Numbered from the stretch's first letter, positions 1 through 20,000 are shown. The stretch is 20,000 nucleotides of DNA from an uncultured virus (IMG/VR IMGVR_UViG_3300030376_005322) (IMGVR_UViG_3300030376_005322); one strand, 5' to 3'. The notes: generated by a model not told the origin, from the sequence alone. Program-made: numbers and translations.

Positions 1-466
1 TCACATCGCCTCCGGCAACGCTTTCTTCTAAGTTGCGTAAATAAGTTCTGATCTTGTATATGTCGTGGCGATGCCATGCCGCCGAAACATGTATTTGTTG
101 TTGGTTCCCCAATTTTTCCATTTCGTCATACGGCAATTCTGCCAACCAATCCAAGAACTCTATGGTCCGGGTGAGGTCATTATCTTTGCGGTCTACTTTT
201 TCCTCGCGGACTTCCGGCATAGGTTTTAGAGAGAAGAGTATTTCATCGTCGCCGTCTTTTTCCCAATCACCGTTTTCGCTAACGATCATGTAAACATCAA
301 CATGTTTATTCTCGCTCCGGGCCTTATAGACTTTGTAGGCCTCACGGATTGCAGTATCCGAGAAAGCATAAGAGCGTTGAAACTCGCCATCTACCCACAT
401 TGTGTACCTATGATCTCCGGTCGAATGAGGTGGCTTATGTTCTCTGTAGTCTTTCCAACTAGTCAT
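1..466 (-). CDS. Hypothetical phage protein, 3' end runs off the window (MTSWKDYREHKPPHSTGDHRYTMWVDGEFQ...)
   Basis: Translated by hand: ATG at 466 overlaps the end of the upstream ORF and the frame is open to the window edge. Absent from the ORF track because it has no stop. Confidence 0.8.
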   Translation of the reverse strand, partial: MTSWKDYREHKPPHSTGDHRYTMWVDGEFQRSYAFSDTAIREAYKVYKARSENKHVDVYMIVSENGDWEKDGDDEILFSLKPMPEVREEKVDRKDNDLTRTIEFLDWLAELPYDEMEKLGNQQQIHVSAAWHRHDIYKIRTYLRNLEESVAGGDV

Positions 467-578
467 TGCTTTCTTCTTCCTTAATAGAGAAATGGCTCAT
501 GATATTGTCAAATGCTTCGAGCAAGTTTTTAGCGTGGGCCATCTCTGGGTTTTCGGTATTTTCTGTTTCTTTATCCAT
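459..578 (-). CDS. Small hypothetical protein (39 aa, MDKETENTENPEMAHAK...), leaderless
   Basis: Hand translation. ATG lies 7 nt after the TATCCT -10 box, and the ORF overlaps the next gene start. Confidence 0.7.
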   Translation of the reverse strand: MDKETENTENPEMAHAKNLLEAFDNIMSHFSIKEEESND

Positions 579-585
579 ACCTTTC

Positions 586-649
586 AGGATAAGGGGTAAA
601 TCTGGGAATTACTCATTATTCCTTGAATTGTTTTGTGACCCATGTCACA
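586..649 (-). promoter_or_regulatory. Cassette promoter 1: TGTGA-N6-TCACA box (634-649), core GAGTAATTCCCAGATTTACCCC, -10 TATCCT (586-591)
   Basis: Core is near-identical at ~1030-1052 and ~2655-2677. The palindrome matches the CRP/GlxR consensus. Confidence 0.85.
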
Positions 650-719
650 CGCCCTCCGGTCAATAGAATGACAGCGGGCTCCCGGTTACCCGGGCTTGCA
701 GTAACTTAATGCAGCAAGC

Positions 720-740
720 GTGTGAATCTTGCGTGTGAAT
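720..740 (+). repeat. Two GTGTGAAT direct repeats (720, 733) at the end of an operon
   Basis: Seen directly. The second copy overlaps the TGA stop at 740-742. Confidence 0.85.
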
Positions 741-871
741 CATTGTAAAGATTTCAACACGTTAATTTCAGACTGCCAATCATCTCCGTACTGCTCATTC
801 TCTTCTAAGAAGTTTATGATCGTAGCCAGCACCCGGCTGTTGTATTGTTTATCTGTTTCTTGATAAGTCAT
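740..871 (-). CDS. Small hypothetical protein (43 aa, MTYQETDKQYNSRVLATIINF...)
   Basis: Hand translation, with an AAGGAAG RBS upstream of the ATG. Confidence 0.7.
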   Translation of the reverse strand: MTYQETDKQYNSRVLATIINFLEENEQYGDDWQSEINVLKSLQ

Positions 872-878
872 GGCTTCC

Positions 879-1016
879 TTATATCTTCTCTAGGATCGCG
901 GCGACCTTTTTTAAGGTCTCTAAATCCATATTGTTAATAGCATCTTCGTTGATGAGTTTTGGGCTCCTCCACATGTCTGCTAATTCTTCTGATGGGTCTT
1001 TCTCTGTGTTTGTCAT
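879..1016 (-). CDS. Small hypothetical protein (45 aa, MTNTEKDPSEELADMWRSPK...), leaderless
   Basis: Hand translation. ATG lies 7 nt after the TATCAT -10 box. Confidence 0.7.
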   Translation of the reverse strand: MTNTEKDPSEELADMWRSPKLINEDAINNMDLETLKKVAAILEKI

Positions 1017-1023
1017 ATATTTA

Positions 1024-1073
1024 ATGATAGAGGGTAAATCTGGGAATTACTCTATAATGTGACAGGAGTCACA
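1024..1073 (-). promoter_or_regulatory. Cassette promoter 2: TGTGA-N6-TCACA box (1058-1073), conserved core, -10 TATCAT (1024-1029)
   Basis: Same core as promoters 1 and 3. The palindrome overlaps the stop of the upstream gene. Confidence 0.85.
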
Positions 1074-1386
1074 CATTTATTACCCTTAAGTGCATTCTCC
1101 CATCGTTAGTGATCTGCCCGGTAGGCAAAGCCTCTACCCGAACAACTTCCGCTCTAGGGAAATATTTATCCCGATAAGTCTCAGCCGCCTTCCGGTAACG
1201 CCAGACCGAAGCCGTAGCCATATCCGGGCTGGCATAGAACCGTTCGTGGACGCTGTAATATCTTCCGGTATGTAGTGGTAGGTCCGAGTCGCGTAACGCA
1301 TACATTGAGTGGACAGACTTCTTGTTCCACCCGTGAATCATCTCTATAGGGCCGCGCAGAACATACCCGGTTGGGTGCTTGCTCAT
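1069..1386 (-). CDS. Hypothetical protein (105 aa)
   Basis: ORF track. Co-oriented and tightly packed, with GAGGAGG upstream. Confidence 0.7.
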   Translation of the reverse strand: MSKHPTGYVLRGPIEMIHGWNKKSVHSMYALRDSDLPLHTGRYYSVHERFYASPDMATASVWRYRKAAETYRDKYFPRAEVVRVEALPTGQITNDGRMHLRVINV

Positions 1387-1388
1387 AT

Positions 1389-1532
1389 TTAAGCCTCCTC
1401 AACATATACTTCTTGAAGTTTCCCCATCGGGACTATTTCAGCATCGTTATATGCTTGCTCAGGGTCTCCGGCTTCGATGGTGTATACCATTTGTCCGTAT
1501 TCGTGTACAAATGAAACGTTGTATAAGGTCAT
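1389..1532 (-). CDS. Small acidic protein (47 aa, MTLYNVSFVHEYGQMVYTIEAGDPEQA...), DpnD/PcfM-like pattern
   Basis: Start re-called at the ATGA overlap with the upstream stop. Y-x-V-x-F...EA-x3-E-x-A pattern. Confidence 0.65.
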   Translation of the reverse strand: MTLYNVSFVHEYGQMVYTIEAGDPEQAYNDAEIVPMGKLQEVYVEEA

Positions 1533-2272
1533 GCGTGCACCCCATTCTGTATGTCGTGAATAGTTACTTTCTTCAAACTTTCTAAAGAAATCTCCCATTC
1601 AGGAACAAGACGTTTGGTGTCTCCGCACATCGCTTCAACAACACTTTCACAATTCTCGTAGAACACTCCCCACGCTATTTCTCGTTGATTATCAGTGAGT
1701 GTGTCGCCACGTTCCGGCATCTGGTCAATAAGGTTTTCAGTCTCATCAACTATCTGAACACCGTTATCCCATACGCCGTGATAGCGCCATTCAGGTGCTT
1801 CCATAATTGACAGCACAGTTATGCGGCAACGATATCGTCTAGAAATAGTTTCTAGAGCCTTCTCCGGTGGGCACCACGCACTTGTAAAAGCGTAAGCGTG
1901 AACGAATAGTTCATCAGCGACAGAGCGAACTTTATTTATATCCAATTCGCCATAGTCGGTACTGAACCCTGCGGTACTGTCAATTTTGCGGAAATCGTAG
2001 TCTCCCCACTTGGAACCCCAATTCAGATCAGCCCATAGGCGACCGTCAATAGTCCCGGCTTCATCATCTTGGTCAGTGAACGCACTGCCGATAACTTCCC
2101 CATCTATAACGATGTCTTTACGACCATTTTCAGGGAAGGGAATCAAATGACTAATAAAAGAGTCAATTTCTCCGGCGGCGGTATCTTCCAACACAAGATT
2201 TAGAATCTTCCGTTGGGCAGGTGGTGTGTCTGTGAAATCCACAAACATTTTGTTAAATACGTGATTAGGCAT
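1529..2272 (-). CDS. DUF1281/YubB-like ferredoxin-fold protein
   Basis: Family motifs MPNH..N, W...NWGSKW and FTSAWCPP. Confidence 0.75.
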   Translation of the reverse strand: MPNHVFNKMFVDFTDTPPAQRKILNLVLEDTAAGEIDSFISHLIPFPENGRKDIVIDGEVIGSAFTDQDDEAGTIDGRLWADLNWGSKWGDYDFRKIDSTAGFSTDYGELDINKVRSVADELFVHAYAFTSAWCPPEKALETISRRYRCRITVLSIMEAPEWRYHGVWDNGVQIVDETENLIDQMPERGDTLTDNQREIAWGVFYENCESVVEAMCGDTKRLVPEWEISLESLKKVTIHDIQNGVHA

Positions 2273-2292
2273 TTTTTAATCTTTCTTGTAAG

Positions 2293-2341
2293 GGTAACCC
2301 TTAACCGAGTCCCCGAAGGGACCCGGTTGGGTGGGTTTACC
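2293..2341 (-). other. Long intergenic RNA hairpin capped by a C(UUCG)G tetraloop
   Basis: Minus strand reads GGTAAACCC..AACCGGGTCCC TTCG GGGACTCGGTT..GGGTTACC, with no U tail. Confidence 0.7.
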
Positions 2342-2344
2342 GAA

Positions 2345-2605
2345 TTAGTAAACTGATATTGTGGTTTCTGCTTCTAAAGTGATAGTTCCACTAGCGAGAG
2401 ATTCTTTAATTTGATCTGTAATCAAATCAGAGAAATCGAACTCGTCTATTTCAGCGCTGACGTAATCAGAGAAATCTACATCTCCAATAGCGTTTTCAAC
2501 AGCAGTTTCAATAGTTCCCTGCATATCTTCGTCTACTTCAGTAGAGGGCAGATAAGGAACTAATGCTTCTGCTAATGCTTTAAGCAATTTTTCTATTGTG
2601 TCCAT
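2345..2605 (-). CDS. Highly acidic hypothetical protein (86 aa)
   Basis: ORF track, AGGAAG RBS, first gene after promoter 3. Confidence 0.8.
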   Translation of the reverse strand: MDTIEKLLKALAEALVPYLPSTEVDEDMQGTIETAVENAIGDVDFSDYVSAEIDEFDFSDLITDQIKESLASGTITLEAETTISVY

Positions 2606-2648
2606 TATTTCTTCCTAACTATATTTCGGTGGTATATCCACATATATT

Positions 2649-2712
2649 ACGATAGGGGGTAAATCTGGGAATTACTCAAAAAAGACGTGTTTGTTTTGTG
2701 ACGTGTGTCACA
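2649..2712 (-). promoter_or_regulatory. Cassette promoter 3: TGTGA-N6-TCACA box (2697-2712), conserved core, -10 TATCGT (2649-2654)
   Basis: Same core, and the same 42-nt box-to--10 spacing as promoter 1. Confidence 0.85.
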
Positions 2713-2750
2713 TGCTAAAACAGCGCCTCCTCCGGTCTTCCCGGGCTACT

Positions 2751-2803
2751 GAAAAAAGAAAATACCGCCCGGGGAGCGAAAGAAGTAACAACCCGGGCGG
2801 TAT
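2751..2803 (-). terminator. Rho-independent terminator
   Basis: 12-bp inverted repeat ATACCGCCCGGG/CCCGGGCGGTAT followed on the minus strand by TTTCTTTTTT. Confidence 0.7.
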
Positions 2804-2807
2804 AGGA

Positions 2808-2862
2808 AATCTGGGAATGCAAATCTGGGATTGCAGCCACGTGTGAATTTTAGCGTGTGAAT
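2808..2862 (+). repeat. AATCTGGGAATGCAAATCTGGGA block plus two GTGTGAAT copies
   Basis: The 23-nt block is identical at 4098-4120. GTGTGAAT at 2841 and 2855 flank the stop codon at 2850-2852. Confidence 0.85.
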
Positions 2863-3044
2863 TCCTCCGGATAGTGTATTTTAGTGATCCGGTTACATTC
2901 TTCTGCCCAGAACTTTGCTTTTTTTATGTCCTCTAATGTGATGTCATCTTCGTCATTCACATAGTTTTCCATATTGTGAGCCTGTGTTTCGTAGAGTAAA
3001 TCCAACGCTTCGATTACGATGTCTTTAGGGGTGAAGTCGCTCAT
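2850..3044 (-). CDS. Hypothetical protein (64 aa)
   Basis: ORF track, ATGA coupling. Confidence 0.75.
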   Translation of the reverse strand: MSDFTPKDIVIEALDLLYETQAHNMENYVNDEDDITLEDIKKAKFWAEECNRITKIHYPEEFTR

Positions 3045-3505
3045 TTCTCCCCCAGTCCTTCGGGAAAGTTTTTCTCTAGGTATGTCCGAAAGAATCTTAA
3101 GTCTCGTAAAATGGAATGAAGTCCTTCGTCGTACTGCTCGTGTTCTTCATTAGACATCTCTAATAGGTTCTTTGAATAAGGCTTTAAGCATTCCAAGAAC
3201 CTTATGGCTTTACCGACACTTTCTGACCAGCAGCCTCTGTCCGGTGACGGTGTATCCCAGTCAATGTCGAACTTGTCGATATTTCCTAAGTGGACATAGA
3301 TGTCTGCTGGTACTCCGGCACCTACATGGTCGCCTTCTTCTACCACGGTAATCAAAAGCCCATGATCGTCATGCCCTTCCTTGACCCCAATTACTTTTGC
3401 GCGAAGCCAAGGCATGGCTACCGTGTCTCCGAATGTTCGGGCTCCTCCCCAGTAATTGAATTCAGTTCCGACAGTTGTTAATTTGTCTAATTCTGATTGG
3501 CTCAT
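3041..3505 (-). CDS. Hypothetical protein (154 aa)
   Basis: ORF track, ATGA coupling, GAGGA RBS. Confidence 0.8.
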   Translation of the reverse strand: MSQSELDKLTTVGTEFNYWGGARTFGDTVAMPWLRAKVIGVKEGHDDHGLLITVVEEGDHVGAGVPADIYVHLGNIDKFDIDWDTPSPDRGCWSESVGKAIRFLECLKPYSKNLLEMSNEEHEQYDEGLHSILRDLRFFRTYLEKNFPEGLGEK

Positions 3506-3699
3506 TGTTCCTCAACTCCTACTATTGTGCCGTCCGCCGCTGGGTCCTCAACGTATGCTGGTTCCCAGTTCCCGGTGTTCCGTAATGTGTTCCAGTTCGC
3601 TTCGTCATCAACGAACTTTTGCATTGCTTCCTGTTCACTGTCGGCATCAACCATGACAGCGAACTCTGCTTCTGCAGTGAATGTAACTTGGTATTCCAT
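3502..3699 (-). CDS. Small acidic protein, DpnD/PcfM-like pattern
   Basis: MEYQVTF...VDADSEQEAMQK pattern, TAATG coupling. Confidence 0.7.
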   Translation of the reverse strand: MEYQVTFTAEAEFAVMVDADSEQEAMQKFVDDEANWNTLRNTGNWEPAYVEDPAADGTIVGVEEQ

Positions 3700-3935
3700 T
3701 ATTGCCCTTTCTTAACGTTGAACCGTGCGAGAGTTTCCTCATCAAGGTGTGGTGCGATTACGTCCATGAACCATAGGTAACGGTCAATATCTTTGATGCC
3801 AGTCAAAAATTCTGTGACTGCTTCCTTGCGGTCTTTACGAGCCGCTTCGATTACTTGTTGTTCAAACATTGCTAAAATGTTTTTATAACCCTCATCACTT
3901 GGGGTCATATCTACTGTCATTACTTCTTCGCTCAT
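3699..3935 (-). CDS. Hypothetical protein (78 aa)
   Basis: ORF track, first gene after promoter 4. Confidence 0.75.
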   Translation of the reverse strand: MSEEVMTVDMTPSDEGYKNILAMFEQQVIEAARKDRKEAVTEFLTGIKDIDRYLWFMDVIAPHLDEETLARFNVKKGQ

Positions 3936-3980
3936 TGTTTTCTTTCTGTCAATAAATGTTGTGGAACTTCCACATATCTA

Positions 3981-4044
3981 ATGGTACACCTTTGGTTGAC
4001 TTTTACCTCATTATTTAAGGGTTAATTTTGTGACGCATGTCACA
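3981..4044 (-). promoter_or_regulatory. Cassette promoter 4: TGTGA-N6-TCACA box (4029-4044) and -10 TACCAT (3981-3986), with a divergent core
   Basis: Box-to--10 spacing is again 42 nt although the intervening sequence differs. Confidence 0.75.
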
Positions 4045-4097
4045 TGCCCGTCCGGTCCCTTCCGGGCTAACCAATCCACACCGCCCGGTCCCTCCCG

Positions 4098-4165
4098 AAT
4101 CTGGGAATGCAAATCTGGGAGTACACCGGCGTGTGAATCTGGGCGTGTGAATTTCACGTGTGAAT
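4098..4165 (+). repeat. AATCTGGGA pair plus three GTGTGAAT copies (4131, 4145, 4158)
   Basis: Seen directly. The last copy overlaps the TAA stop at 4165-4167. Confidence 0.85.
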
Positions 4166-4335
4166 TACCAGTCTCTAACCTCGTCTGTAGTGATTTCCAC
4201 CAAAGGTCCAGCCTCTGCTAAAAGATCAGGGATATGAACAGTTTCGGCATAATGCTCTGCCTCGTCTCTGTCCATTTCAACAGTTGTGATTAGTATGACA
4301 TTTTCGTAAACAAACGAAATATTATATTTTCCCAT
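4165..4335 (-). CDS. Small acidic protein (56 aa, MGKYNISFVYENVILITTVEMDRDEA...)
   Basis: Hand translation, TAATG coupling. N-terminus resembles that of 1389-1532. Confidence 0.7.
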   Translation of the reverse strand: MGKYNISFVYENVILITTVEMDRDEAEHYAETVHIPDLLAEAGPLVEITTDEVRDW

Positions 4336-4481
4336 TAGATTATCTCATGCCTTCCGTTCTCGTTCTTCTCGGTGAACTTATCTGCACAACAAACATCTCC
4401 ACCTGTGCTATCAAAGAACATGCCTTCATGTTCGTAAATCCGATCCCCACACCAGTCGCATTCTCCGCCTGAATCGCTCAT
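4335..4481 (-). CDS. Small Cys-containing protein (48 aa, MSDSGGECDWCGDRIY...VCCAD), possible zinc ribbon
   Basis: Hand translation, ATGA coupling, CxxC...CC motif. Confidence 0.65.
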   Translation of the reverse strand: MSDSGGECDWCGDRIYEHEGMFFDSTGGDVCCADKFTEKNENGRHEII

Positions 4482-4906
4482 TGGTTTATGTACCATTCAT
4501 CTACGAAGTGCTCCGCTATTTCACGCCATTGAACTCGCCAGAAGGAACCGATGTCGTCACGAACGTCTGAAAAACCGTAGCCCTTACCTTGGACGATTTC
4601 CGACAGTTGGCAATAATCACCAACAAAGAATTCTTCTAACGCACCAGCAACGTCGTTATGTAAAATATTCCAGCCTGCATTAGTTATCGCAGTAGAGCCA
4701 AATGCTTCGCCTTCGTCAGGGTCCTCGCTATTCCAATGACCAGCCATTTCAAAAACATGGTCAAATATGCCCAGTTCTTTAACCTGTAATTCGCCAGCCC
4801 AAAGGTTTACTGCCCATGTCTCGCGATTAGTCCAGCCGTTGTAATCTTCAAAACCCTCGTGACTTCTCCAATCTATGCGCCGCATTACTTCCTGCTTTTC
4901 TTTCAT
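4478..4906 (-). CDS. Conserved phage hypothetical protein with a YNGWTNRETWAVNLW motif
   Basis: Start re-called to the ATG at 4906 (GGAGGTGA RBS, ATGA overlap). The motif is typical of a widespread phage family of unknown function. Confidence 0.8.
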   Translation of the reverse strand: MKEKQEVMRRIDWRSHEGFEDYNGWTNRETWAVNLWAGELQVKELGIFDHVFEMAGHWNSEDPDEGEAFGSTAITNAGWNILHNDVAGALEEFFVGDYCQLSEIVQGKGYGFSDVRDDIGSFWRVQWREIAEHFVDEWYINQ

Positions 4907-5157
4907 TGCGTCACCTCCACGCCAATAATACGCATGCTGTGTATCTCCATATTGAAACGAGTGAGAGAGTCCCAGCATTCATTGGGCATCGCATACGATC
5001 CTTCGGATAGTTGTGACCATGCCACCGCTCGGGCTTGTAACTCGTTTTGAATTTCGTGACTGAAAGAATCTAATTCGACTTCCACAGTTAGCGCTTCGTT
5101 TAGTAATATTTTGACAAAATAGTTTGTCACTGTTTTCTGTTTTACTACCATTACCAT
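4903..5157 (-). CDS. Hypothetical protein (84 aa)
   Basis: ORF track, TAAGGA upstream, first gene after promoter 5. Confidence 0.7.
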   Translation of the reverse strand: MVMVVKQKTVTNYFVKILLNEALTVEVELDSFSHEIQNELQARAVAWSQLSEGSYAMPNECWDSLTRFNMEIHSMRIIGVEVTQ

Positions 5158-5187
5158 TCCTTAATGTTGTAAATATGTACACCATCT

Positions 5188-5231
5188 ATGGTAGGGGGTA
5201 AATCTGTAATTGACAAGTGACATGTGTCACA
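5188..5231 (-). promoter_or_regulatory. Cassette promoter 5: AGTGA-N6-TCACA box (5216-5231), CAGATTTACCCCC core, -10 TACCAT (5188-5193)
   Basis: Core partly conserved. Box-to--10 spacing is 22 nt. Confidence 0.8.
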
Positions 5232-5280
5232 CCCAAACAAGCGCCCTCCCGGGTCACCTCCCGGCCTTACCCGGTCTCGA

Positions 5281-5508
5281 AATCTGGGGATACAGCGCCC
5301 GGTGTCAATCTACGTGTGAATCTTGCCCGGTGCGGTTACGCAAGTGTGAATTTTGCCCGGTGTGAATCTGGGAATACAGAATCGGGGATACTTTCATGTG
5401 TGAATTTTCATGTGTGAATCTGGGCACACAAACCCACGTGTGAATCCATGTGTGAATCCCCACCCGCATCAGGGAGATGCAGGCAGGAACCCAACCACAT
5501 GTGTGAAT
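5281..5508 (+). repeat. Dense non-coding cluster of oriented GTGTGAAT (8 copies) and AATCTGGG repeats
   Basis: GTGTGAAT at 5314, 5344, 5360, 5398, 5412, 5438, 5450 and 5501. AATCTGGG at 5281, 5365 and 5417. Confidence 0.9.
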
Positions 5509-5718
5509 TTAATCGACGAGAGAAGCGGAACCTCTAGTTCCAGCCAAACGAGAAGCCGCAGCACCCTTCACTACAGAAAGGGCAGCAGACACGCCAGCCA
5601 TAACAATCATCTTCCACTGATCAACACCAAGGTCCATGACACTATTAGTTGACATAGCGCCAATAGCCGCTTGGCAAAAAGTCGCCAACGTCCTCTCAGC
5701 GAGGTCTTTATAATTCAT
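5509..5718 (-). CDS. Holin, r1t-like family
   Basis: LAERTLATFCQA..., two hydrophobic segments, C-terminal SASLVD, AGGAG RBS. Confidence 0.8.
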   Translation of the reverse strand: MNYKDLAERTLATFCQAAIGAMSTNSVMDLGVDQWKMIVMAGVSAALSVVKGAAASRLAGTRGSASLVD

Positions 5719-5771
5719 TACTACTCCTAACTAAAAAAAAACAATCCACGCCAGCAGGGGCGCATTTCGCC

Positions 5772-5884
5772 TTTTTTGTTGTTTTTGGTTTGTTGTTTGT
5801 TTGTTTCTGGGGGTTTGGGGGTTTGTGGTTAGTTTTTCTATACTATTGGTCGTGTGTTGGTTTACTTGTTGGGGTGTGTGTTTT
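5772..5884 (+). other. G/T-skewed low-complexity non-coding tract
   Basis: The plus strand is almost entirely G and T (ttgtttttggtttgttgtttg...). Confidence 0.8.
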
Positions 5885-6104
5885 ACAGGCTTTCTGCCAA
5901 AGTTATCGCTGCAGCAATGATGGCTGTCAGCAACGACGCTGGTACTGCGTAAATCCATTTCTCTACAGTACGTACCCTTTGTTCAAGGTCTGTTATTTGA
6001 CGATGCTGATTTAACGTTAGATCATCTATTTTCTGTTCAATAGATTCAAGTCTTTCCGCTAACACCGCCAACGCAACATCGACGCTTTGCTGACTATTAG
6101 CCAT
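5883..6104 (-). CDS. Coiled-coil protein with a C-terminal TM helix (XhlA-like membrane protein)
   Basis: Heptad pattern followed by WIYAVPASLLTAIIAAAITL. Start re-called to MANSQQ. Confidence 0.65.
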   Translation of the reverse strand: MANSQQSVDVALAVLAERLESIEQKIDDLTLNQHRQITDLEQRVRTVEKWIYAVPASLLTAIIAAAITLAESL

Positions 6105-6651: not shown

Positions 6652-6692
6652 ATCTAGAGTTTAGGGCACCACACTTACGAGGCGTTGCAGGG

Positions 6693-6899
6693 TCAGGCCA
6701 CTCGGCTCTTAAAAACTGGGGTTTTCTTTAATAACTGGGTGGAAGGAGTAAGCACTGGTTTCACCGATGTTTCCCGTGTTTTTTCAAGATTTCTTATTTT
6801 TTTTTCGGCTTCTTGTATTAGGTCTGCGAATGCTTTGAATGCTGCTTCTGCAGAGGCCGAAAATTGTGTGTTTTCAGGGGTTTTTTCTCTTTTTTCCAT
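6693..6899 (-). CDS. Small hypothetical coiled-coil protein (MEKREKTPENTQF...)
   Basis: GGAAGGA RBS before the ATG at 6899. Confidence 0.5.
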   Translation of the reverse strand: MEKREKTPENTQFSASAEAAFKAFADLIQEAEKKIRNLEKTRETSVKPVLTPSTQLLKKTPVFKSRVA

Positions 6900-7025
6900 C
6901 TCTGTTCCTTCCGTGGGTCTACCATCTTTACACATAAAATCGGATAGGGAGACCTACCCTGCACCTTTTTTCTAAGAAATTCTATTAAAGTCGTGTACAG
7001 GACATCTATATGTTCGGAGGTCACT

Positions 7026-7659: not shown

Positions 7660-7681
7660 CCTTCTACCCCTTTAAGGAACC

Positions 7682-11601: not shown

Positions 11602-11640
11602 ATACCCAGCGTACAGTAATTGAAAACTCAGGGGCGGTTT

Positions 11641-12486: not shown

Positions 12487-12495
12487 GAATACATC

Positions 12496-14076
12496 TTAGA
12501 GCGCCATGCCTAGTCGCCGTGCGAAGGCATCTAACGCCTGTTCAGCCCTATCTAGGCTTCCCTCTGGATAGGGAAGATCAAATTCAAAGCGTATTGCTTC
12601 GGCTAAAGCCACCGGGTTTATCTCTACCGGGTCGCCCGCTATGCACTGGACGAGGCTGTTAGGGCTGTAAAGATAGGCACGAACGTCACGGAAACCAACT
12701 CTCCAAAGTTTCTCCCATTCATTAGTAGAGAAATACTTTTGGACTTTTGGCCTTTTTATTAAATCAGAAACAACAACTCCTTCTTCATATCCAGCCGAGA
12801 ATGAGGAGTCGAATTGTGTTTCGTGATTAGAGATATTGTCTTTCTGGCCTGTAGCCGCCAAATACCTATCTGCTGTTCTAGAAATAGCGCCAGCGTAAAC
12901 AGTTGTAGATGGAGAAGATAACGCTGAAATAATACGAACGATGTGTAAACGATCACTATGGAAAGGGACACTATTAAGCACAGAGGCTAAGAAAATCGAA
13001 TCAAATTCTGTCCCGTCAGCAACACGGGCAAGAAACATGTCAGTTATGTAACGAGCGCCTTCTATATCGAAACCTGAATCTTTACCGCCTGTGTAATAAG
13101 GCTCAAAGGCTACACAGTCGATCCCCATTACATCTTGCATAGTGTGAGACTTGTCGAGAAGACCAGCCCCAAAATCTAAAACTGTCGTTCCATACCATTT
13201 CTTCCATGCATCAACATGGACAGGGTTTTCGACATCAAACATAGATGCGGCTCTTTGAGTTTTACCTGTCCGAGATAAGGCAGATATTAAATCACAACAC
13301 ATAGTTGGCATTAAAAAATTTTGCCTGTTGCTAGCCCTACGGAAAGAGTTGTACCGGAGAACGTCTGCATACTTATCCTCTAAATCGAAATCCATAGATA
13401 AATGGTTGAGCATTATCTGGGCCAAATTTGCTTTGCTTTTCGAGACTGTGATCGTTTGGACTTCTGGTATCCCTACTTCTGTGGCGTGCTGTAACCTCCC
13501 GATACCATTAACAACATCGCCTTTATGAGTGACGACAAGAGGGATACTTGTTTTCCCCCAATGGTAAAGACTCTCTGCTTGTCGAATTGTGTGGTATTTG
13601 AACTGCTGAATATTTTTAGTTGCAAGTTCCCTAGTATCTTCTTTCTTAATACCCATACATGGATACCATTCGTCTGAATTGACTTCTATATCAGGCAAAC
13701 CTTCTGAGGCCCCAAGAACAACTGATAAAGGCAAGCGTTCCGAGAGGGACTCTCCAGTATCTTGTTTGTCCATATCGTTAGTTGCTCGATTAAAAACTAT
13801 ATTTACGCCTTTACGACGTTGAAGATCAAGCCCATCAAGAAACACAACCGGGACCTTAGAAGCGCCCAATTCTCTAGCAGCATCTAAACGTTGATGCCCT
13901 GATAAAACCTCTCCTGCTGGAGTTGCATACATGGGTAAAAGCCAACCAAGTTTTTTAAGGCTGGTTTTAACCATCTCGAAACGGTGAGGATCAGACCTAC
14001 GAGGGTTGTAAGCGGCTTTCTCTAAAGAGTCAATATCCACTAATTTGATTTGGACAAACTTCGGGTTCCTACTCAT
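12496..14076 (-). CDS. ParB/Srx-domain protein fused to a class I SAM-dependent transferase domain
   Basis: N-terminal YNPR...VLSGHQRL and a second VVNGIGRL. C-terminal VLDFGAG, AFEPYY and FDSIFLASVLNSVP. Confidence 0.8.
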   Translation of the reverse strand: MSRNPKFVQIKLVDIDSLEKAAYNPRRSDPHRFEMVKTSLKKLGWLLPMYATPAGEVLSGHQRLDAARELGASKVPVVFLDGLDLQRRKGVNIVFNRATNDMDKQDTGESLSERLPLSVVLGASEGLPDIEVNSDEWYPCMGIKKEDTRELATKNIQQFKYHTIRQAESLYHWGKTSIPLVVTHKGDVVNGIGRLQHATEVGIPEVQTITVSKSKANLAQIMLNHLSMDFDLEDKYADVLRYNSFRRASNRQNFLMPTMCCDLISALSRTGKTQRAASMFDVENPVHVDAWKKWYGTTVLDFGAGLLDKSHTMQDVMGIDCVAFEPYYTGGKDSGFDIEGARYITDMFLARVADGTEFDSIFLASVLNSVPFHSDRLHIVRIISALSSPSTTVYAGAISRTADRYLAATGQKDNISNHETQFDSSFSAGYEEGVVVSDLIKRPKVQKYFSTNEWEKLWRVGFRDVRAYLYSPNSLVQCIAGDPVEINPVALAEAIRFEFDLPYPEGSLDRAEQALDAFARRLGMAL

Positions 14077-15401
14077 CTCTTAAATTCGTTATGTCCAGTT
14101 GTAGGATCAGCAACCGAAGCCCACACTGAGAAAGAGGACGTATCAAGTTTGAGTAACTGCCCTATCCTGTACCCTCTTTCCTCTTTAGATAAATACCCAT
14201 CAGTAATCATTTTGTGTTCCCATTCTGAATATTGTCTACCGCAAACTTGAACGCTAGTGCTCCCAAACTTTAAGGTTGCTACGCGTCGGACATCCGCCGG
14301 AGCGTCGATAATTGCTGCTGGGTCTCTCTCTTGAGGAAGGTCTTTAAGTACTTCCTCAATGTCTGCTGGCTGAAAGCCTGTACCATCAAGGCTGTCTAAG
14401 TCCATTAACACATTCGCTAAGGACGAATTGTAGTAACCGGCTTTATCTGCCAACCGATTATCAGCAAGCATTATCCTTGTGGCCTCATCGTCATCTAAAT
14501 CCATAAAGACAACAGGAACCTCATCCCAGCCAAGAGATTTAGCAGCCTGCCAAGTATTGTTACCTTTAAGTATCAGGCCGCTTGATTCCTGAATTAGTAA
14601 AGGCCTATAAACGCCATTCACCCTTAAAGATTCACTAATAGCCCCAATGTCGCCTTGCCGAGCGTTCTCTGGGTGAGGAGAAACTGAATCTATAGGAACC
14701 CAATTCAATGGGTCTAGCCCAACATGTTTAGGAGTCTCCCCAGAAATCGTTTTCCATTTTTTAGATTTAATATTTGGTTTAGGGTCAGGGTCCTCGGTTA
14801 GCCCTAACATTCCTCTTATGTGATGAACCGCTTCCTTAGCCCCACCGCAGGAATCAGATATGTTACCGAACCACTCTTTATAGTATTCGGCTTCGACAAG
14901 TAAAAGATTTTTGCCTATAGAAATCTTTGCAGTAGTTGCTTCATCTTGACTATTGGGACCATCGCCTCCTGAGAAGATATCTTCAAAGTCGCTAAATTCT
15001 TCCATCTGGTAAAGTCGTTCGAGTGAGCGTTTATCCCACCCTGAACCTTCTAAGTCAGGTGAAAGTCGTTCAATTAGTTCTATGAGATTCTGTCGGTCAT
15101 AAGTCGCTAAATCAGAAGTGCGATTATCTGCTAACAGAATTCTTTTTGCCTGCTGGTCATCAACTTCCACATGGACAACAGCAATCTCTTTCCACCCGAG
15201 AGATTTTGCTGCTTTCCATGTGTGGTTGCCTGCAAGGATATTTCCGTTGCGTAGGTCTACGACAATGGGCGCGTACTGACCATTGACATCTAAAGACTCT
15301 GCTATACCGGGCACGTCACCCTGTCTAGGATTAGCAGGGTGAGACTGAACTGAGTCAATCCCCACTATGAGTTCTTCTAAGTCGTCAGCAATATTTCCCA
15401 T
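14073..15401 (-). CDS. Tandem ParB/Srx N-terminal-domain protein
   Basis: Two homologous halves: HPANPRQGD..ILAGNHTWKAAKSLGW..LLADNR and HPENARQGD..ILKGNNTWQAAKSLGW..MLADNR. Confidence 0.9.
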   Translation of the reverse strand: MGNIADDLEELIVGIDSVQSHPANPRQGDVPGIAESLDVNGQYAPIVVDLRNGNILAGNHTWKAAKSLGWKEIAVVHVEVDDQQAKRILLADNRTSDLATYDRQNLIELIERLSPDLEGSGWDKRSLERLYQMEEFSDFEDIFSGGDGPNSQDEATTAKISIGKNLLLVEAEYYKEWFGNISDSCGGAKEAVHHIRGMLGLTEDPDPKPNIKSKKWKTISGETPKHVGLDPLNWVPIDSVSPHPENARQGDIGAISESLRVNGVYRPLLIQESSGLILKGNNTWQAAKSLGWDEVPVVFMDLDDDEATRIMLADNRLADKAGYYNSSLANVLMDLDSLDGTGFQPADIEEVLKDLPQERDPAAIIDAPADVRRVATLKFGSTSVQVCGRQYSEWEHKMITDGYLSKEERGYRIGQLLKLDTSSFSVWASVADPTTGHNEFKR

Positions 15402-15417
15402 TACCTAACCTTACTAT

Positions 15418-15681
15418 TTATACGGTTTCTAAGGGAACCTTAATGTATGCGCTGTTATGGTCGTGACCATAAGAAGTCCAACGATGAATCCACTGTTTCG
15501 TGCAACGAAGAGTGTCTGCAAGGTTGTCTAAAGTTTCACCATTATCACGTGCCCAACGAAGTGTCTTTAACAAATCGTTTTGTGCCTCCTGATAAGCGGC
15601 TTTCGCTTCTGCTACTGCGTCATTAGCCTGCTCTACCTTGTCAATAACTTTAGGTATTGCAGGTGTTCTTGATTTTGGCAT
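15418..15681 (-). CDS. Small HTH DNA-binding protein
   Basis: ARDNGETLDNLADTLRCTKQWIHRW. Confidence 0.65.
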   Translation of the reverse strand: MPKSRTPAIPKVIDKVEQANDAVAEAKAAYQEAQNDLLKTLRWARDNGETLDNLADTLRCTKQWIHRWTSYGHDHNSAYIKVPLETV

Positions 15682-15683
15682 AT

Positions 15684-15911
15684 CTATTTACCTCTCTTGA
15701 TATCGGCTCCATCTAGGAGCGTTTTTAATAAGTGAAACAACTTGTTCCACTTTAGATCATCTCTATGAAATGGTTTTACTTGTTTTTCAGATTCTCTTTG
15801 GTAGTCGTCGGCAGATTTACCAGACAACATCTCAAGTTCTAAAGATTCAACGGTACTTCCGTTGGCCATTTCTACAAGCAACTGTTCTTCTTTATTCGTT
15901 ATCTTCTTCAC
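15684..15911 (-). CDS. Hypothetical protein (75 aa)
   Basis: ORF track, operonic packing. Confidence 0.6.
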   Translation of the reverse strand: MKKITNKEEQLLVEMANGSTVESLELEMLSGKSADDYQRESEKQVKPFHRDDLKWNKLFHLLKTLLDGADIKRGK

Positions 15912-16302
15912 CCCAGTCGATTTCTATTTTCCAAATTTTCTCATAATGTGCAACTACCCAAACTATTGCAGAAGGCTTTACGTCTTGATTGAAAGGAGCA
16001 AGCACTAAGCATGTCTCCGATCTATCTGTAACAGCCGCATCAGCAAGGATTAAACCTTCATGGGATTCGGTCATCACTGAACTTTCGTCCATGACTTCCC
16101 AGCCGTGATATACCCGGACAGGACGTTTCATCTCTTTAGCCACTGCCGCTATTTGGGAAATCGCTGTGTACCTAACCAACTGTTCCGTTAAAGCAGGTTC
16201 AGCCTGATCGCTGTCATTACGAGCGTGAGATAAAGCAAATTCCCATTGGTCTTCTGCCTCTCTACACAATCTGGCGTAACGTATTTTTTCGTTCCTATTC
16301 AT
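15892..16302 (-). CDS. Hypothetical protein (136 aa)
   Basis: ORF track, GGAGAGG RBS. Confidence 0.75.
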   Translation of the reverse strand: MNRNEKIRYARLCREAEDQWEFALSHARNDSDQAEPALTEQLVRYTAISQIAAVAKEMKRPVRVYHGWEVMDESSVMTESHEGLILADAAVTDRSETCLVLAPFNQDVKPSAIVWVVAHYEKIWKIEIDWGEEDNE

Positions 16303-16309
16303 ACCTCTC

Positions 16310-18505
16310 CTATTGAGTCCTAGCGATCAAACGCTTAACTAGATCATTAAGGACAGTATTGGAATCTGGTTCCTCACCATCAGTGACGCTATCTACGATT
16401 ACTCGCTTCGCTTCAATGAGTTCATAGATGTCATCATCGATAGTCCCATCAGCAAGAAGGTACCATGCAGAAACATTGTCATCCTGACCGATACGATGGC
16501 AACGATCTTCTGCCTGATCGTGCTCTGCCGGAGTCCAACCTTGTTCCACGAAAAGAACATCAGAAGCCGCAGTAAGAGTAAGCCCTACACCGCCAGCCTT
16601 CATATTTAGAACGATAACCCGAGCATCAGGATCATTCTGGAATGAATCCACTGCTTCTTGGCGAGCCTCGGCAGAGTCTTTACCAGCGACTCTAAGCCCA
16701 CCGAAACGACTGGCTATTTCGTCTACCACAGCAACGTGATGGGCGAATACAACTAATTTACGATCAGTGCTATCAAGGAAAGTGTCTATCCATTCGCAAG
16801 CCGCTTCAATTTTGCCTTCGCCAGCGAGACGCTTAAGCGTAGTGATGTTTGACAATGTGTTAGCAGAGTCTTGACCAGAGCCACCAAAGTAGGAGAGAGC
16901 ATCAAGTTCTGCCCTACGGTATGCCGCCATTGCTGGACCATTAAGATCAACATTAACTTGGTAACGTGCCTTGTCTGGGAGTTCCTTAAGAACTTCTGAT
17001 TTATTGCGACGTACATAGCAGGTACGACGGAGAAGGTCATTTAATTCTTCTGAATTAGCGGAACCAGAAAAGTCCCAACCAAACCGTGTTTTATTCGCAT
17101 TGCAGTAGCGTTTACGGAAGTTCCAAGAACCACCGAATTCGTCGATACGGTCAATAATCTCTAATTGGGAAACCAACTCAATCGGACGATTAAGAACAGG
17201 AGTACCAGTAAGAGCCAGCACCATGCCTTCTGCAGGAATAGCAGACGCTATGTTTTTAAGAGCCTGCGTTCTTTTAGCAGTTGGATTCTTAGCATAATGA
17301 CTTTCATCAAATACAAGCGCTTGGAAACCTAACGCAATAAGAGCATCTTCGTGCTTAGTTAAAATGTCGTAATTGATGATGACAATATCAGCGTTTTTGA
17401 CGCCTGATTTACTATCAACTATGTGGACGTTCTTACCGGGAAGCCATTTACGTGCTTCTCTTTCCCAGTTTGTCTTCAAAGACGCTGGGCAAACAACCAA
17501 TGTCGGGAAAGTGTTTTCTGCTAATACAGAAGCAAGAGCCTGAACAGTTTTACCAAGACCCATCTGGTCAGCGATAAAGCAACGACGTGTATTGGTCGCA
17601 TAGAGAACGCCTGCACGCTGGAATGGACGTAATGTCCCACCAAGGTTAGGAATGTCGAACTCTGCATCAGTGGCTTCTGATTGCATACCACGACGATCGG
17701 AGCCTTCGATATGGTCGCTTAATGCTTCTCTAGTCTCATCGCTTATTTCAACATCATGGAAAGCGGCCAATGTAACAGCCGTATCTGCAGACGACATAGG
17801 AACTACCCAAACTTTACGCTTAGTGTCCCAGCGACGACCAGTTAAACCCTTAACAGCCTCAACAAGGTCAGCGTCATAATCGAAATCAAAAATAAGGTCA
17901 CGGCCCTCAATGTAAAGTGCGCGTTTTTTAGCAACTTCTTCTGGAACTACTGCTTCGTGATCCATTAAAATTTGCAAGGCTTCATCTGTGCATTCAAATC
18001 CGTTCTGTTCAGCGAAAGAACGTAGAAGACCAGCACCGTCAGCCTCAACTACCCAACGGTAATTTGTGCCATCCCATTCAGACCCCATAATGTTACGAAC
18101 TTTGCTAACAAGGTCAGCAGAGTACTTGAAGTAGATATGAAATTCGTTGTTTACGAACTCGATCCTACTTTTACCACGACGTAAGTAATCTGCTTGACGT
18201 GCATCATCACGCCCATCAGCGCCAAAAACTTCAATAGGTGCTGAAAGGTCATCGTAATCAAAACATAAACTTTCGAGTTGGTTGCTGTATTTTTTAAGCA
18301 TCTTGTAGCACTCGGAAGCCATAGCATCAGTCCAGTTTTCTGGAAGAGTATCTGCACAGCGTTGACCAAATTTTGTATCAGAACCGTTAAAGCCCACGCC
18401 GTCTTGTGCCTCGGCACCATCACAGTTCGCCGCTATAAGGCTTACTGCTTCCCAGAGATCATTAATTACATCTTTAGTGTTATGTTGCAAAGTTTCTGTT
18501 TTCAT
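16310..18505 (-). CDS. SNF2-family helicase, SMARCAL1/HARP-like
   Basis: DQMGLGKT, DESH, LTGTP and QAEDRCHRIGQ, plus two N-terminal HARP-like repeats. Confidence 0.92.
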   Translation of the reverse strand: MKTETLQHNTKDVINDLWEAVSLIAANCDGAEAQDGVGFNGSDTKFGQRCADTLPENWTDAMASECYKMLKKYSNQLESLCFDYDDLSAPIEVFGADGRDDARQADYLRRGKSRIEFVNNEFHIYFKYSADLVSKVRNIMGSEWDGTNYRWVVEADGAGLLRSFAEQNGFECTDEALQILMDHEAVVPEEVAKKRALYIEGRDLIFDFDYDADLVEAVKGLTGRRWDTKRKVWVVPMSSADTAVTLAAFHDVEISDETREALSDHIEGSDRRGMQSEATDAEFDIPNLGGTLRPFQRAGVLYATNTRRCFIADQMGLGKTVQALASVLAENTFPTLVVCPASLKTNWEREARKWLPGKNVHIVDSKSGVKNADIVIINYDILTKHEDALIALGFQALVFDESHYAKNPTAKRTQALKNIASAIPAEGMVLALTGTPVLNRPIELVSQLEIIDRIDEFGGSWNFRKRYCNANKTRFGWDFSGSANSEELNDLLRRTCYVRRNKSEVLKELPDKARYQVNVDLNGPAMAAYRRAELDALSYFGGSGQDSANTLSNITTLKRLAGEGKIEAACEWIDTFLDSTDRKLVVFAHHVAVVDEIASRFGGLRVAGKDSAEARQEAVDSFQNDPDARVIVLNMKAGGVGLTLTAASDVLFVEQGWTPAEHDQAEDRCHRIGQDDNVSAWYLLADGTIDDDIYELIEAKRVIVDSVTDGEEPDSNTVLNDLVKRLIARTQ

Positions 18506-18548
18506 GTCTTTTTTCCTTATGTGTTTTTGTAAAGTAATGCGTCCTTTA

Positions 18549-18566
18549 AGTATAGGGGGAATTGAC
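18549..18566 (-). promoter_or_regulatory. Probable promoter for the helicase (GTCAATTCCCCC-TATACT)
   Basis: -10 TATACT preceded by a C run, as in the cassette promoters. Confidence 0.5.
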
Positions 18567-18571
18567 CTATA

Positions 18572-18865
18572 TCACAACTTGCGTCTATTCAACATTTTCT
18601 GTTCCTGAATACTCCTAGCCAAAGCAACCATCTGCTGAACTAAAGGCTTAGAAACTCCCATTTCTTTAGCGATCTGGGAGTAAGTAAACCCATCTCCTCC
18701 GTTACCGAAATCGCTTGCTTCTTTAACTGATAAAGCACGCTCGGCAATAGCAGAACGCCTAAACGCATCTGCCGCAGGCAGCACCCTCTCATTAAGAAGC
18801 CTCGCTCTTTCCATTGGGTCTTCTACATCTTTTACTTGTTCAAATAACTCTATTAAATTGTCCAT
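18572..18865 (-). CDS. HTH DNA-binding protein
   Basis: FTYSQIAKEMGVSKPLVQQMV. Confidence 0.75.
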   Translation of the reverse strand: MDNLIELFEQVKDVEDPMERARLLNERVLPAADAFRRSAIAERALSVKEASDFGNGGDGFTYSQIAKEMGVSKPLVQQMVALARSIQEQKMLNRRKL

Positions 18866-18881
18866 ACTTTGTTCCTGTTCT

Positions 18882-19247
18882 CTATGTCTCGTTTATCATC
18901 AGTAGCGCCCTATCGTCTCCCCCATCAACTCTGGGAGCCCTAAACGTTAACGACGTTACAAACTTCGGGCCATCATCAGGTATTACCCCTGCATCTACTA
19001 AACCATCTATGCAAGCCTTCGCTACCGGGAAGTGCCCTCCAGTATCAGCCATGTGTCGTCGATCTTTTCTACAAGGAATAAATACAACTTCGATTGCATT
19101 CATCGGTGGCACTTCTGCTTCTATCGCCGCTTCGCAAGCCGCTTCTCGCCATGACTTAACAAACTTTGCCCTCTTGTGATAATGCATTCCGCGCTCACCA
19201 TTCAGAGTAAACAATTTGCCTTCAATAGATAACGACCAAGACTTCAC
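18882..19247 (-). CDS. RusA-like Holliday junction resolvase
   Basis: D.......KACIDGLVDAGVIPDD motif. Confidence 0.8.
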   Translation of the reverse strand: MKSWSLSIEGKLFTLNGERGMHYHKRAKFVKSWREAACEAAIEAEVPPMNAIEVVFIPCRKDRRHMADTGGHFPVAKACIDGLVDAGVIPDDGPKFVTSLTFRAPRVDGGDDRALLMINET

Positions 19248-19265
19248 ATACCTATCCTATACCCT

Positions 19266-19580
19266 CTAAAGTTTATTAGTCAGCCTTTCCTTGATTTCTT
19301 GTATCTTCTCTAAAGTTTCTTCTCTGCTTAAACAAGTATCAGGTTCTTCAAGTTCAAGAACTTCATGCGAACGAGAAGCGACAAGCACTTCTCTAAACTC
19401 TGCCCATGAAGGCCAAAATTTACAGTTATCTATAACTGTGTCTAAAGCCTGCACTGCTATTTGGAAATCAAAAGGAGCAAGTTTCCTCGCCCATAAAGAA
19501 ACCTCTGGGACGCTAAGTTTTTTAGTCGGGTAAGCAACGCTGAGTTGCGCCAAAATGTAATCTGATTCATCTTCGTTCAT
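19266..19580 (-). CDS. G39P-like replicative helicase loader/inhibitor
   Basis: ILAQLSVAYP...W...L...KFWPSWAEFRE pattern, in a replication context. Confidence 0.65.
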   Translation of the reverse strand: MNEDESDYILAQLSVAYPTKKLSVPEVSLWARKLAPFDFQIAVQALDTVIDNCKFWPSWAEFREVLVASRSHEVLELEEPDTCLSREETLEKIQEIKERLTNKL

Positions 19581-19607
19581 GTTTAGTCCTTAAGTCTTAA
19601 TAATAAA

Positions 19608-19745
19608 AGAGTGGGGCCAGAATTCTTAAACAACAGCGAATTGGTCGCAGGCCAGAAACAAAAAAAGAGCCTGAAACGAATTACTTGCTAGTCGCAGAAT
19701 CCGTCCAACAGGTTAGAAAGAATAACAACCTGTAGACCCCACTCT
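19608..19745 (-). ncRNA. Candidate structured non-coding element (multi-stem)
   Basis: Closing stem AGAGTGGGG/CCCCACTCT encloses several internal stems. Confidence 0.45.
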
Positions 19746-19751
19746 AAATTT

Positions 19752-19880
19752 TTACCTATTAGATTTTCTAGAAACTCTGTAGGAGCGTGGGGCTTTTTTA
19801 TTTTTCATATCTTTAGCCCTCGCCTCTTCGAGTTCCTTCTTTGTAATAGCGTCTGATCTAGGTATTTGTGATAATCCCAT
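19752..19880 (-). CDS. Small basic protein (42 aa, MGLSQIPRSDAITKK...)
   Basis: Hand translation, GAGGA RBS. Confidence 0.5.
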   Translation of the reverse strand: MGLSQIPRSDAITKKELEEARAKDMKNKKAPRSYRVSRKSNR

Positions 19881-20000
19881 TTCGTTCCTCTCTTGCTTGT
19901 TGAATCGCATCAAACCCTTTAGGGAAATTTGTTACGTCTTGTACAGGAACCTTTGCTGGGTCCAATTCGGACCAATGGTTCGCTATAGCGATTGGGGTGA
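19858..20000 (-). CDS. C-terminus of a gene entering from the right, possibly a replication initiator (...TPIAIANHWSELD...)
   Basis: Open frame to TAG at 19858-19860, upstream of the G39P-like gene. The product call is weak. Confidence 0.45.
   Translation of the reverse strand, partial: TPIAIANHWSELDPAKVPVQDVTNFPKGFDAIQQAREERNGIITNT

Follow-up and report, generated by a model that had tools for sequence, protein, structure and literature searches.

In a 20,000-nucleotide stretch of DNA from the uncultured virus IMGVR_UViG_3300030376_005322 (hereafter the window, in which positions are counted unless another sequence is named), the tetranucleotide CCGG is dense and flanked in one way at the left, and sparse and flanked in the opposite way over the rest, while the direction of the genes stays the same. 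We asked which orientation of this short word is under selection, and what could read it in one direction only. Here, we report that a single orientation is selected, being enriched in a presumed early module that encodes an ArdC-type anti-restriction protein and purged from the remaining genome, and that this pattern is conserved in a lineage of uncultured phages. We tentatively propose that the word is a one-way signal coupled to transcription.

The word V-CCGG-R is confined to one end of the window

An automated count found 59 CCGG in the window. Positions 1-5400 held 39 of them, 38 with a pyrimidine on the 5′ side on the plus strand (YCCGG), the lone exception being aCCGGc at 4126. Positions 5401-20000 held 20, of which 19 were RCCGG (the exception is cCCGGa at 16114) and 18 were CCGGR (exceptions at 9301 and 14437). 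The flip of the flanks, which the original prediction had counted by hand, was thus reproduced almost to the site. The roughly 5-fold higher density claimed for the left side was borne out as well, with 7.2 CCGG per kb in 1-5400 versus 1.4 per kb in 5401-20000, where base composition predicted 13 and 35.5 sites, respectively. The association between region and 5′ flank was strong (Fisher's test, p = 2.8e-13). Lists of open reading frames (ORFs) and family scans placed the genes mainly on the minus strand on both sides, as had been stated, with the exception of three small plus-strand ORFs in 6993-7918.

Read on the minus strand, which is the sense strand of most genes, the selected word is V-CCGG-R, with no T on the 5′ side and a purine on the 3′ side. 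It occurred 37 times on the minus strand in 1-5400 and not once in 5401-20000. On the plus strand, 18 copies were found in 5401-20000 and five in 1-5400, and all of these five were palindromic CCCGGG, counted on both strands. Twenty of the 37 minus-strand copies lay within ORFs and 17 in intergenic repeated modules or clusters, and the flank rule was respected in all three codon frames. The proteins of the left region are acidic, and their Pro-Glu and Gly codons are able to spell the word. When 5-mers and 6-mers were ranked by how localized they are, the CCGG word came first in the genome in both classes, with a log-likelihood ratio of 127. The T7 genome, used as a control, had no comparable field, and its best word reached a ratio of 14.

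A single orientation is under selection

The synonymous codons of the window were shuffled 1,000 times, leaving noncoding DNA unchanged. On the left, 32 sense CCGGR were observed versus 19.7 ± 2.2 in the shuffles, none of which was as high; on the right, one was observed versus 8.8 ± 2.7, and none of the shuffles was as low. A relative provided a larger test, an 86,117-base circular map made of two IMG/VR contigs of one phage that overlap at both ends with 99.99% identity (the 86-kb map), in which synonymous codons were shuffled within genes (n = 300). Its early-module genes carried 44 sense copies versus 13.7 ± 3.0 in the shuffles (maximum, 23), and its remaining forward genes carried six versus 44.5 ± 6.1 (minimum, 26). 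Antisense copies in these remaining genes stayed at the null level, with 32 observed versus 36.7 ± 5.5. A single orientation is therefore selected, being favored within the field and disfavored outside it, and the opposite orientation is at its codon null. Because of that neutrality, the apparent flip on the right side of the window is the background that survives a one-sided purge. The original prediction had doubted that codon usage explains the asymmetry, and rightly so, as codon-preserving shuffles left the effect in place in both directions.

Copies on both strands, that is, CCCGGG, were tolerated in the field; there were five in the window, and they made up most sites of the related contig L073 (see below). 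This tolerance and the neutral opposite orientation weaken symmetric models, such as colliding nucleases that require inverted pairs, avoidance of paired nicks, and two-armed steering.

The dense field is one island on a circular map

In the sense direction, the 86-kb map runs from the early module (ArdC-type anti-restriction and GP88-like genes) through an HNH gene, endolysins, and SSB, and then through a 6-kb reverse-strand block to the portal, protease, and capsid genes, followed by the tail, replication, terminase, and lysis genes. The dense orientation formed one island of about 10 kb, or 12% of the map, whose near edge was sharp and whose far edge faded. In 4-kb bins, the first 12 kb, which contain the early module, had 102 CCGG, of which 93 were sense CCGG-R; the following 36 kb had 53, of which 12 were, these being weak variants; and the last 38 kb had 35, of which none was. 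The lineage's preferred forms were exclusive to the field (CCGGAG, 47 copies versus none outside; CCGGAC, 16 versus none). GC skew showed no turn at either edge of the field.

These data contradict the proposal that the signal is symmetric about an origin or terminus, since the dense orientation makes up a single island of about 10 kb, selection acts on one orientation only, and GC skew does not turn. Asymmetry between replication arms was ruled out on the same grounds, the opposite orientation not being purged on the other side. A lagging-strand priming site, also suggested from the window, found no support in the GC skew at the edges, and no primase gene was seen.

The switch is inherited within a widespread lineage

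Relatives were collected by means of the large terminase, which yielded 39 IMG/VR loci with 72-100% identity and 43 to 62% G+C, the window's own sequence among them; one further contig (L073; large-terminase identity, 75%) came from a gammaproteobacterial bin. Eight related contigs extend 5.6 kb or more beyond the large terminase gene, and in every one the rule switches 2.7-5.7 kb downstream of that gene. Upstream of and including the gene (241 kb from 39 loci besides the window's own), sense CCGG was followed by a purine in only 17 of 567 cases, and CCGGA occurred three times versus 198 copies of its complement, TCCGG. In a 38-kb relative with 59% G+C, sense CCGG was followed by A in 0 of 174 cases and by G in 2 of 174. 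Moreover, in each of the six sequences tested for strand asymmetry relative to base composition, 5-mers containing CCGG came first or second.

The junction in the window is spanned by an independent IMG/VR contig (L001) and by a Logan contig of run X6 (3521-6444). With two independent contigs crossing it and eight relatives repeating the switch, the junction is not an assembly chimera, an outcome that the original prediction had left to be checked. Being conserved in relatives, the switch is therefore an inherited feature of the lineage and not an artifact of assembly.

The core word was constant across relatives of 43 to 62% G+C, which points to a reader that is phage encoded or very conserved. 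Its density was maintained while its positions turned over, as is expected of many weak sites. The ArdC orthologues of two relatives carried 14 and 11 sense copies and one and zero antisense copies, and only one copy column was shared in their protein alignment. Two genes each held about 15 copies per kb versus about 4 expected from their own codons. Two unrelated ArdC genes, by comparison, carried eight versus seven and five versus six copies in sense versus antisense. No near match was found among cultured phages. The best matches of the large terminase and the portal, Methanothermobacter psiM100 and Gordonia phages, were all below 50% identity, and there is therefore no cultured model.

Two observations on individual relatives may be added. 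In four of about 45% G+C (L020, L022, L026, and L031), CCGG was nearly absent, e.g., none in 8.9 kb and one in 5 kb, so that part of the lineage may be under a further pressure against CCGG that does not depend on orientation. L073 lies in a 0.9-Mb gammaproteobacterial metagenome bin, and its field consists mainly of CCCGGG and CCCGGA; the bin is a weak hint of a gammaproteobacterial host, nothing more.

The switch lies at the start of a repeated promoter module

As listed in Table 1, the sense strand at the switch presents, in order, the holin-like gene, the eight ATTCACAC repeats, the six CCGG-R, the palindrome, and the promoter-like element. This arrangement is conserved in relatives. Moreover, four further intergenic gaps, all in the left region, repeat the set of ATTCACAC repeats, CCGG-R cluster, palindrome, and promoter-like element; no gap on the right does. 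Such repeated promoter modules mark the left region as a many-promoter early module that would be driven by the host polymerase. The switch had been placed near the repeat cluster, and there it was found: it lies at 5.2-5.5 kb, past the last of the lysis genes and ahead of the first early promoter. The field also extends leftward beyond the window's start by 1.7 kb or more, a stretch in which all 11 CCGG of a near-identical metagenome contig (L076) are YCCGG on the plus strand.

Table 1. Positions of the features around the CCGG switch in the window
Feature	Position	Strand	Details
Early-module field	1..5357	-	37 V-CCGG-R copies on the sense strand; small acidic minus-strand ORFs
Conserved 21-base promoter-like element, TTCCCA-16-TAATAT	2651..2671	-	Copies at 1026-1046 and 588-608; diverged copy near 5185-5212
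Intrinsic-terminator-like hairpin and U run	2750..2803	-	-25.1 kcal/mol, z = -4.8; stem contains two CCGGG copies
Operator-like palindrome GTGACA-N2-TGTCAC	5217..5230	.	Four more at 4030-4043, 2698-2711, 1059-1072, and 635-648
Boundary array, six CCGG-R within 110 bases	5249..5357	-	Follows the last late gene and precedes the first early promoter
Array of eight ATTCACAC repeats, single orientation	5314..5508	-	Conserved in relatives
Purged zone	5401..20000	-	V-CCGG-R: 0 on minus strand, 18 on plus strand
Holin-like gene	5509..5718	-	phrog_443, E = 1.7e-11; last gene of the co-directional block before the switch
G/T tract (C/A-rich when read in sense), containing a small GC hairpin between runs of A and T	5730..5880	.	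Upstream of the holin-like gene
Three reverse-strand ORFs	6993..7918	+	CCGG at 7286, 7486, and 7510 obey the absolute-strand rule, with the word on the ORFs' own sense strand
Terminase genes	8899..10825	-	Small, 10151-10825; large, 8899-10227; anchor for relatives; 3.4 kb upstream of the switch

The equivalent boundary array of a relative has nine copies in 130 bases and is followed by a clear sigma-70-type element, TTGACT-17-TAGAAT. Seven ATTCACAC copies besides the array lie in intergenic modules at 720-740, 2841-2862, and 4131-4165 (minus), so that the window holds 15, all on the minus strand and all below 5510, where 0.67 was expected. The ATTCACAC core resembles relaxed forms of the DnaA box; DnaA boxes are carried by the T5 injection-stop region. 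Palindromes of the form GTGACA-N2-4-TGTCAC numbered five versus 0.27 expected, with none above 5400. Each of them lies upstream of a promoter-like element of the early module, and they are probably the operator of a dimeric regulator. Hairpin formation as the role of the CCGG clusters was rejected, as one of the four tested clusters folded better than shuffled sequences and the other three did not. No known RNA families or tRNAs were found.

The G/T tract lies outside the CCGG field, and a similar C/A-rich spacer is present in a relative. The depth of Logan contigs over 2540-5258 was 1.3 to 1.45 times that of the rest in runs X1, X2, and X3 and dropped back near 1-2125, which may reflect shared strains or partial terminal redundancy. 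Unitigs broke at 5258/5356, within the repeats.

Gene content of the purged zone

In the purged zone, the genes form a co-directional block and are so tightly packed that hardly any intergenic space is left. They encode a helicase loader, RusA, an SNF2 helicase, two ParB-N proteins, a nuclease, a methyltransferase, the terminase subunits, a 2OG-Fe oxygenase, and the holin-like protein. The 2OG-Fe(II) oxygenase genes (7915-8457 in the window; also in relatives L040-L042 and L063-L064) amount to six to eight paralogues per genome, placed among the tail and terminase genes. In relative L068, a 1,276-amino-acid reverse ORF (L068:2587-6417, minus) had no Pfam or PHROG match, and the 6-kb reverse block that contains it also encodes a FabG-like reductase and a staphylococcal-nuclease homologue.

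A one-way signal coupled to transcription is tentatively favored

Among the explanations considered, we tentatively put first that V-CCGG-R on the sense strand is a weak, additive, one-way mark of the early gene class, at which a phage factor attenuates or cuts and thereby shuts the early module off. The early class would correspond to the module of 7 to 11 kb of host-promoter-driven, anti-defense genes that directly follows the lysis genes. A one-way additive signal is favored because the word is concentrated in the early module and the same orientation has been removed from the remaining genome, the other strand is neutral, the field begins sharply at the start of a transcription unit, positions turn over, and the core is independent of G+C content. 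A reader that moves in one direction would also allow copies on both strands, which accounts for the CCCGGG tolerated in the field. As with the stoperators discussed below, the word is co-oriented with transcription of the early module, inside and between its genes (37 copies), and is lacking in the sense orientation from the genes meant to escape (none in 14.6 kb of the window).

What the data show is the selection on the word, its strand polarity, its conservation, and its link with early promoter modules; we infer that transcription is the process in which the word is read, that the factor acts at a given time of infection, and that late transcripts read through the reverse-strand genes. 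The mechanism might run as follows. A phage-encoded factor, which could be a polar roadblock, a reader of the nontemplate strand borne by RNA polymerase, or a sequence-specific RNase, would act on the transcription complex moving in the sense direction, or on its transcript, and would attenuate or cut at each copy. With many copies per transcription unit, the early module would be shut down at the late switch, and the array at the module's start would keep late transcription from running into it. Host genes might be shut off too, a word this short being common in any genome. DNA crossed by late transcription would have been cleared of the sense-orientation word, which would leave the late genes immune, and the opposite orientation, without effect, would drift at background. 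A strong effect would need many copies, and even one copy would be costly in a long late block.

Several findings weigh against this proposal, foremost the behavior of the reverse-strand genes. If transcription of each gene were what matters, the constraint should follow each gene's own direction; instead, CCGG sites in reverse genes kept to the absolute strand in 23 of 24 cases in relatives and in 26 of 27 when the window is included, among them all nine sites of the 1,276-amino-acid gene, and at many of them the word is present in the sense direction of the reverse gene itself. The simplest reading of this rule is a constraint at the DNA level, and the alternative is a process that crosses everything in one direction. 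The rule fits the transcription model only if late transcripts cross the reverse genes antisense, an assumption that is the model's main weakness. Such late read-through is plausible because endolysin genes lie upstream of the reverse block in a relative. A terminator scan at the convergent end of one reverse block gave no clear terminator, a result that favors neither outcome. A plain mRNA-level reading, through an RNase or a codon effect, fits poorly with the absolute-strand rule and was kept only together with the assumed read-through. In addition, the purge is as strict in replication genes, usually an early class, as in structural genes; in the relative, the weak variants CCGGAA, CCGGGA, and CCGGGG are still found 12-38 kb into what is presumed to be the late block; five to six bases are short for a DNA-binding protein; and the factor itself is hypothetical.

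A further step, more doubtful than the transcription-coupled signal itself, would make the word the address label of a self-immunity, such that the factor acts on V-CCGG-R in the host genome and in the phage's own early module, and 75 kb of later genes have been rewritten to escape it. If so, a single word would provide host shutoff, the early-late switch, and self-protection without any modification of DNA.

DNA-end, packaging, restriction, and nicking signals

An explanation that we consider possible, but rank below the transcription-coupled signal, is that the word serves as a DNA-end or packaging signal for a machine moving along the duplex in one direction only. It may take two forms. In one, a Chi-like field would tame a host helicase-nuclease that enters at the left end at the switch, this end being first injected or exposed. 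In the other, the word would be a stop or cut word of the terminase, harmless early in head filling and read at the next early module of the concatemer, and it would be absent from the rest of the genome because the motor must not meet it before that module. Either form directly explains the absolute-strand rule that troubles the transcription model (26 of 27 reverse-gene sites). A physical end at the switch is plausible given the T7-like order, in which anti-restriction early genes come after the terminase and lysis genes, and the dense array lies exactly there. PMC12315714 offers a precedent in the co-oriented Chi at one end of phages LLS and MD8.

The Chi-like form predicts, however, that the word is neutral beyond the field, far from the entry end, whereas a 7-fold purge was observed (six versus 44.5 ± 6.1), and in the 38-kb relative no sense CCGG is followed by A. 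The enteric Chi octamer, GCTGGTGG, was itself in excess, with 23 copies on the sense strand of seven sequences versus about 6 expected from composition (about 4-fold) and five on the other strand versus about 4.4 expected; the copies are in relatives G002-G006, the 86-kb map, and the window (10076-10083, minus). This excess may reflect codon usage or real use of Chi by a RecBCD host. Since GCTGGTGG is enriched in its own right and the only bin with a relative is gammaproteobacterial, the host's Chi is probably a different sequence; the 0.9-Mb gammaproteobacterial bin, which is incomplete, gave no RecC match. The Chi-like end-protection site put forward originally stays among the rivals; the copies are co-oriented and concentrated, but such a site leaves the purge unexplained and has to contend with a separately enriched enteric Chi. 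For the terminase form, a gate in head filling would agree with the weak variants, which, past the field, are confined to the first 44% of the map and are absent from the last 48 kb. This form is nevertheless without precedent and explains neither the clusters at each promoter module nor the copies 8 kb into the module. Finally, a long terminal repeat is not supported, as contig depth over part of the module is raised 1.3 to 1.45 times and not 2 times.

It is unlikely that the phages are evading an orientation-dependent restriction system that needs inverted pairs of sites (Type III, Type ISP, or MANTIS/BREX-like), with the field serving as a co-oriented decoy or sink that is alone in the cell until the anti-restriction genes are expressed. 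The removal of a short asymmetric word from one strand, the other remaining at background, is the signature described in 10.64898/2026.09.23.753747 and PMC3874151, and the field module does encode an ArdC-type anti-restriction protein. Yet the field creates many inverted pairs (37 versus 18 copies in the window and 94 versus about 50 on the 86-kb map), which is the worst arrangement for evasion, and by this logic the field should lead to a purge of the opposite orientation and not of the same one. Moreover, a host specificity is unlikely to stay constant across phages of 43 to 62% G+C, and nothing in evasion calls for a 3-fold enrichment over the codon null.

Still less probable is a site of strand-specific nicking or hemi-modification by a phage enzyme, e.g., an HNH or ParB-like nuclease, as in T5, tf, or phiKMV. 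The mark would lie on one strand within the early module and on its partner in the rest of the genome. In favor are the short, asymmetric, and strand-exclusive nature of the word, the presence of several nuclease genes, and the nick consensus of phiKMV, which ends in CTCCGG. The annotation of the first 12 kb of the T5 record places a major interruption beside the injection stop signal, and nicks of T5 and BF23 are confined to one strand according to PMC10644984. Against nicking, CCCGGG carries the word on both strands, so that double nicking would break the DNA; the opposite orientation is at its codon null and not selected; and 5 to 15 sites per kb are far above known nick systems.

An artifact of codon usage, amino-acid composition, repeat amplification, or misassembly is hardly credible, for although Pro-Glu and Gly codons can spell the word and 17 of the 37 window copies lie in repeated intergenic modules, it is rejected by the shuffles in both directions, the use of all three frames, the log-likelihood ratio (127 versus 14 in T7), and a junction found in independent contigs and shared by eight relatives.

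Comparison with known systems

All sense copies of a five-base word are gone from tens of kilobases, yet up to 15 per kb are present nearby, which implies a one-way reader and a large effect on fitness. The pattern is conserved across a widespread lineage of uncultured marine phages of 43 to 62% G+C. Its reader, if found, could reveal a new way in which phages time gene expression or tell their own DNA from that of the host, and the word would serve as a sequence-only marker of the early anti-defense module in uncultured phage genomes. In the literature, leaving supplements aside, we found no description of a word that is enriched in an early module and purged in the same orientation elsewhere.

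Polar signals in transcription or RNA include the stoperators of phage L5, the class II stop word of T7 RNA polymerase, and the targets of T4 RegB (GGAG in early mRNAs) and T4 Alc. Like the L5 stoperators and their kin, the word is asymmetric, has one orientation relative to transcription, and occurs within and between the regulated genes, and genes that escape lack it or are immune. Unlike the stoperators, which are 13 bases long, it has five to six bases and 5 to 15 copies per kb. Moreover, the purge here extends over about 75 kb and includes the antisense strand of reverse genes, and the repressor, RNase, or polymerase factor is putative.

KOPS and SRS words, of eight bases, steer FtsK and SpoIIIE towards dif. 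They resemble the present word in being polar, in changing orientation sharply at one point of the map, and in that the wrong orientation is selected against. Here, however, there are no two selected arms, the far edge is gradual, and the word is five to six bases long, not eight. No FtsK/SpoIIIE-type gene was found among the ORFs scanned, which are part of all ORFs, and a host enzyme might serve instead. Packaging sites of the P1 pac type are arrays of hexamers at the packaging start. The array at 5249-5357 is, in contrast, accompanied by more than 30 further copies in genes and by four more clusters. In gene order the lineage is like T7: its early module comes immediately behind the terminase and lysis genes, a position that the early genes of T7 take in the concatemer.

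PMC12315714 counts 20 versus 3 co-oriented Chi in LLS and 32 versus 0 in MD8, which are lambdoid phages without a recombination module. These clusters are similar to the CCGG field in their many copies, their single orientation, their position near a probable genome end, and their being written through genes; in the present phages, by contrast, the same orientation is purged outside the cluster, and the word is shorter and unlike the known Chi sequences. For restriction, 10.64898/2026.09.23.753747 gives the example of T7, whose 36 EcoP15I sites are all in direct repeat. Depletion by Type III, Type ISP, and MANTIS systems shares with the CCGG pattern the loss of a short asymmetric word from one strand over most of the genome with the other strand untouched, but the 40 to 100 copies of the purged orientation in the same molecule defeat any avoidance of inverted pairs.

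At least one observation is out of line with each of Chi, KOPS, strand bias of restriction sites, stoperators, and nick or pac words, and the pattern is not fully accounted for by any phage signal so far described. It is related to known polar signals, and there is a real chance that it represents a new kind.

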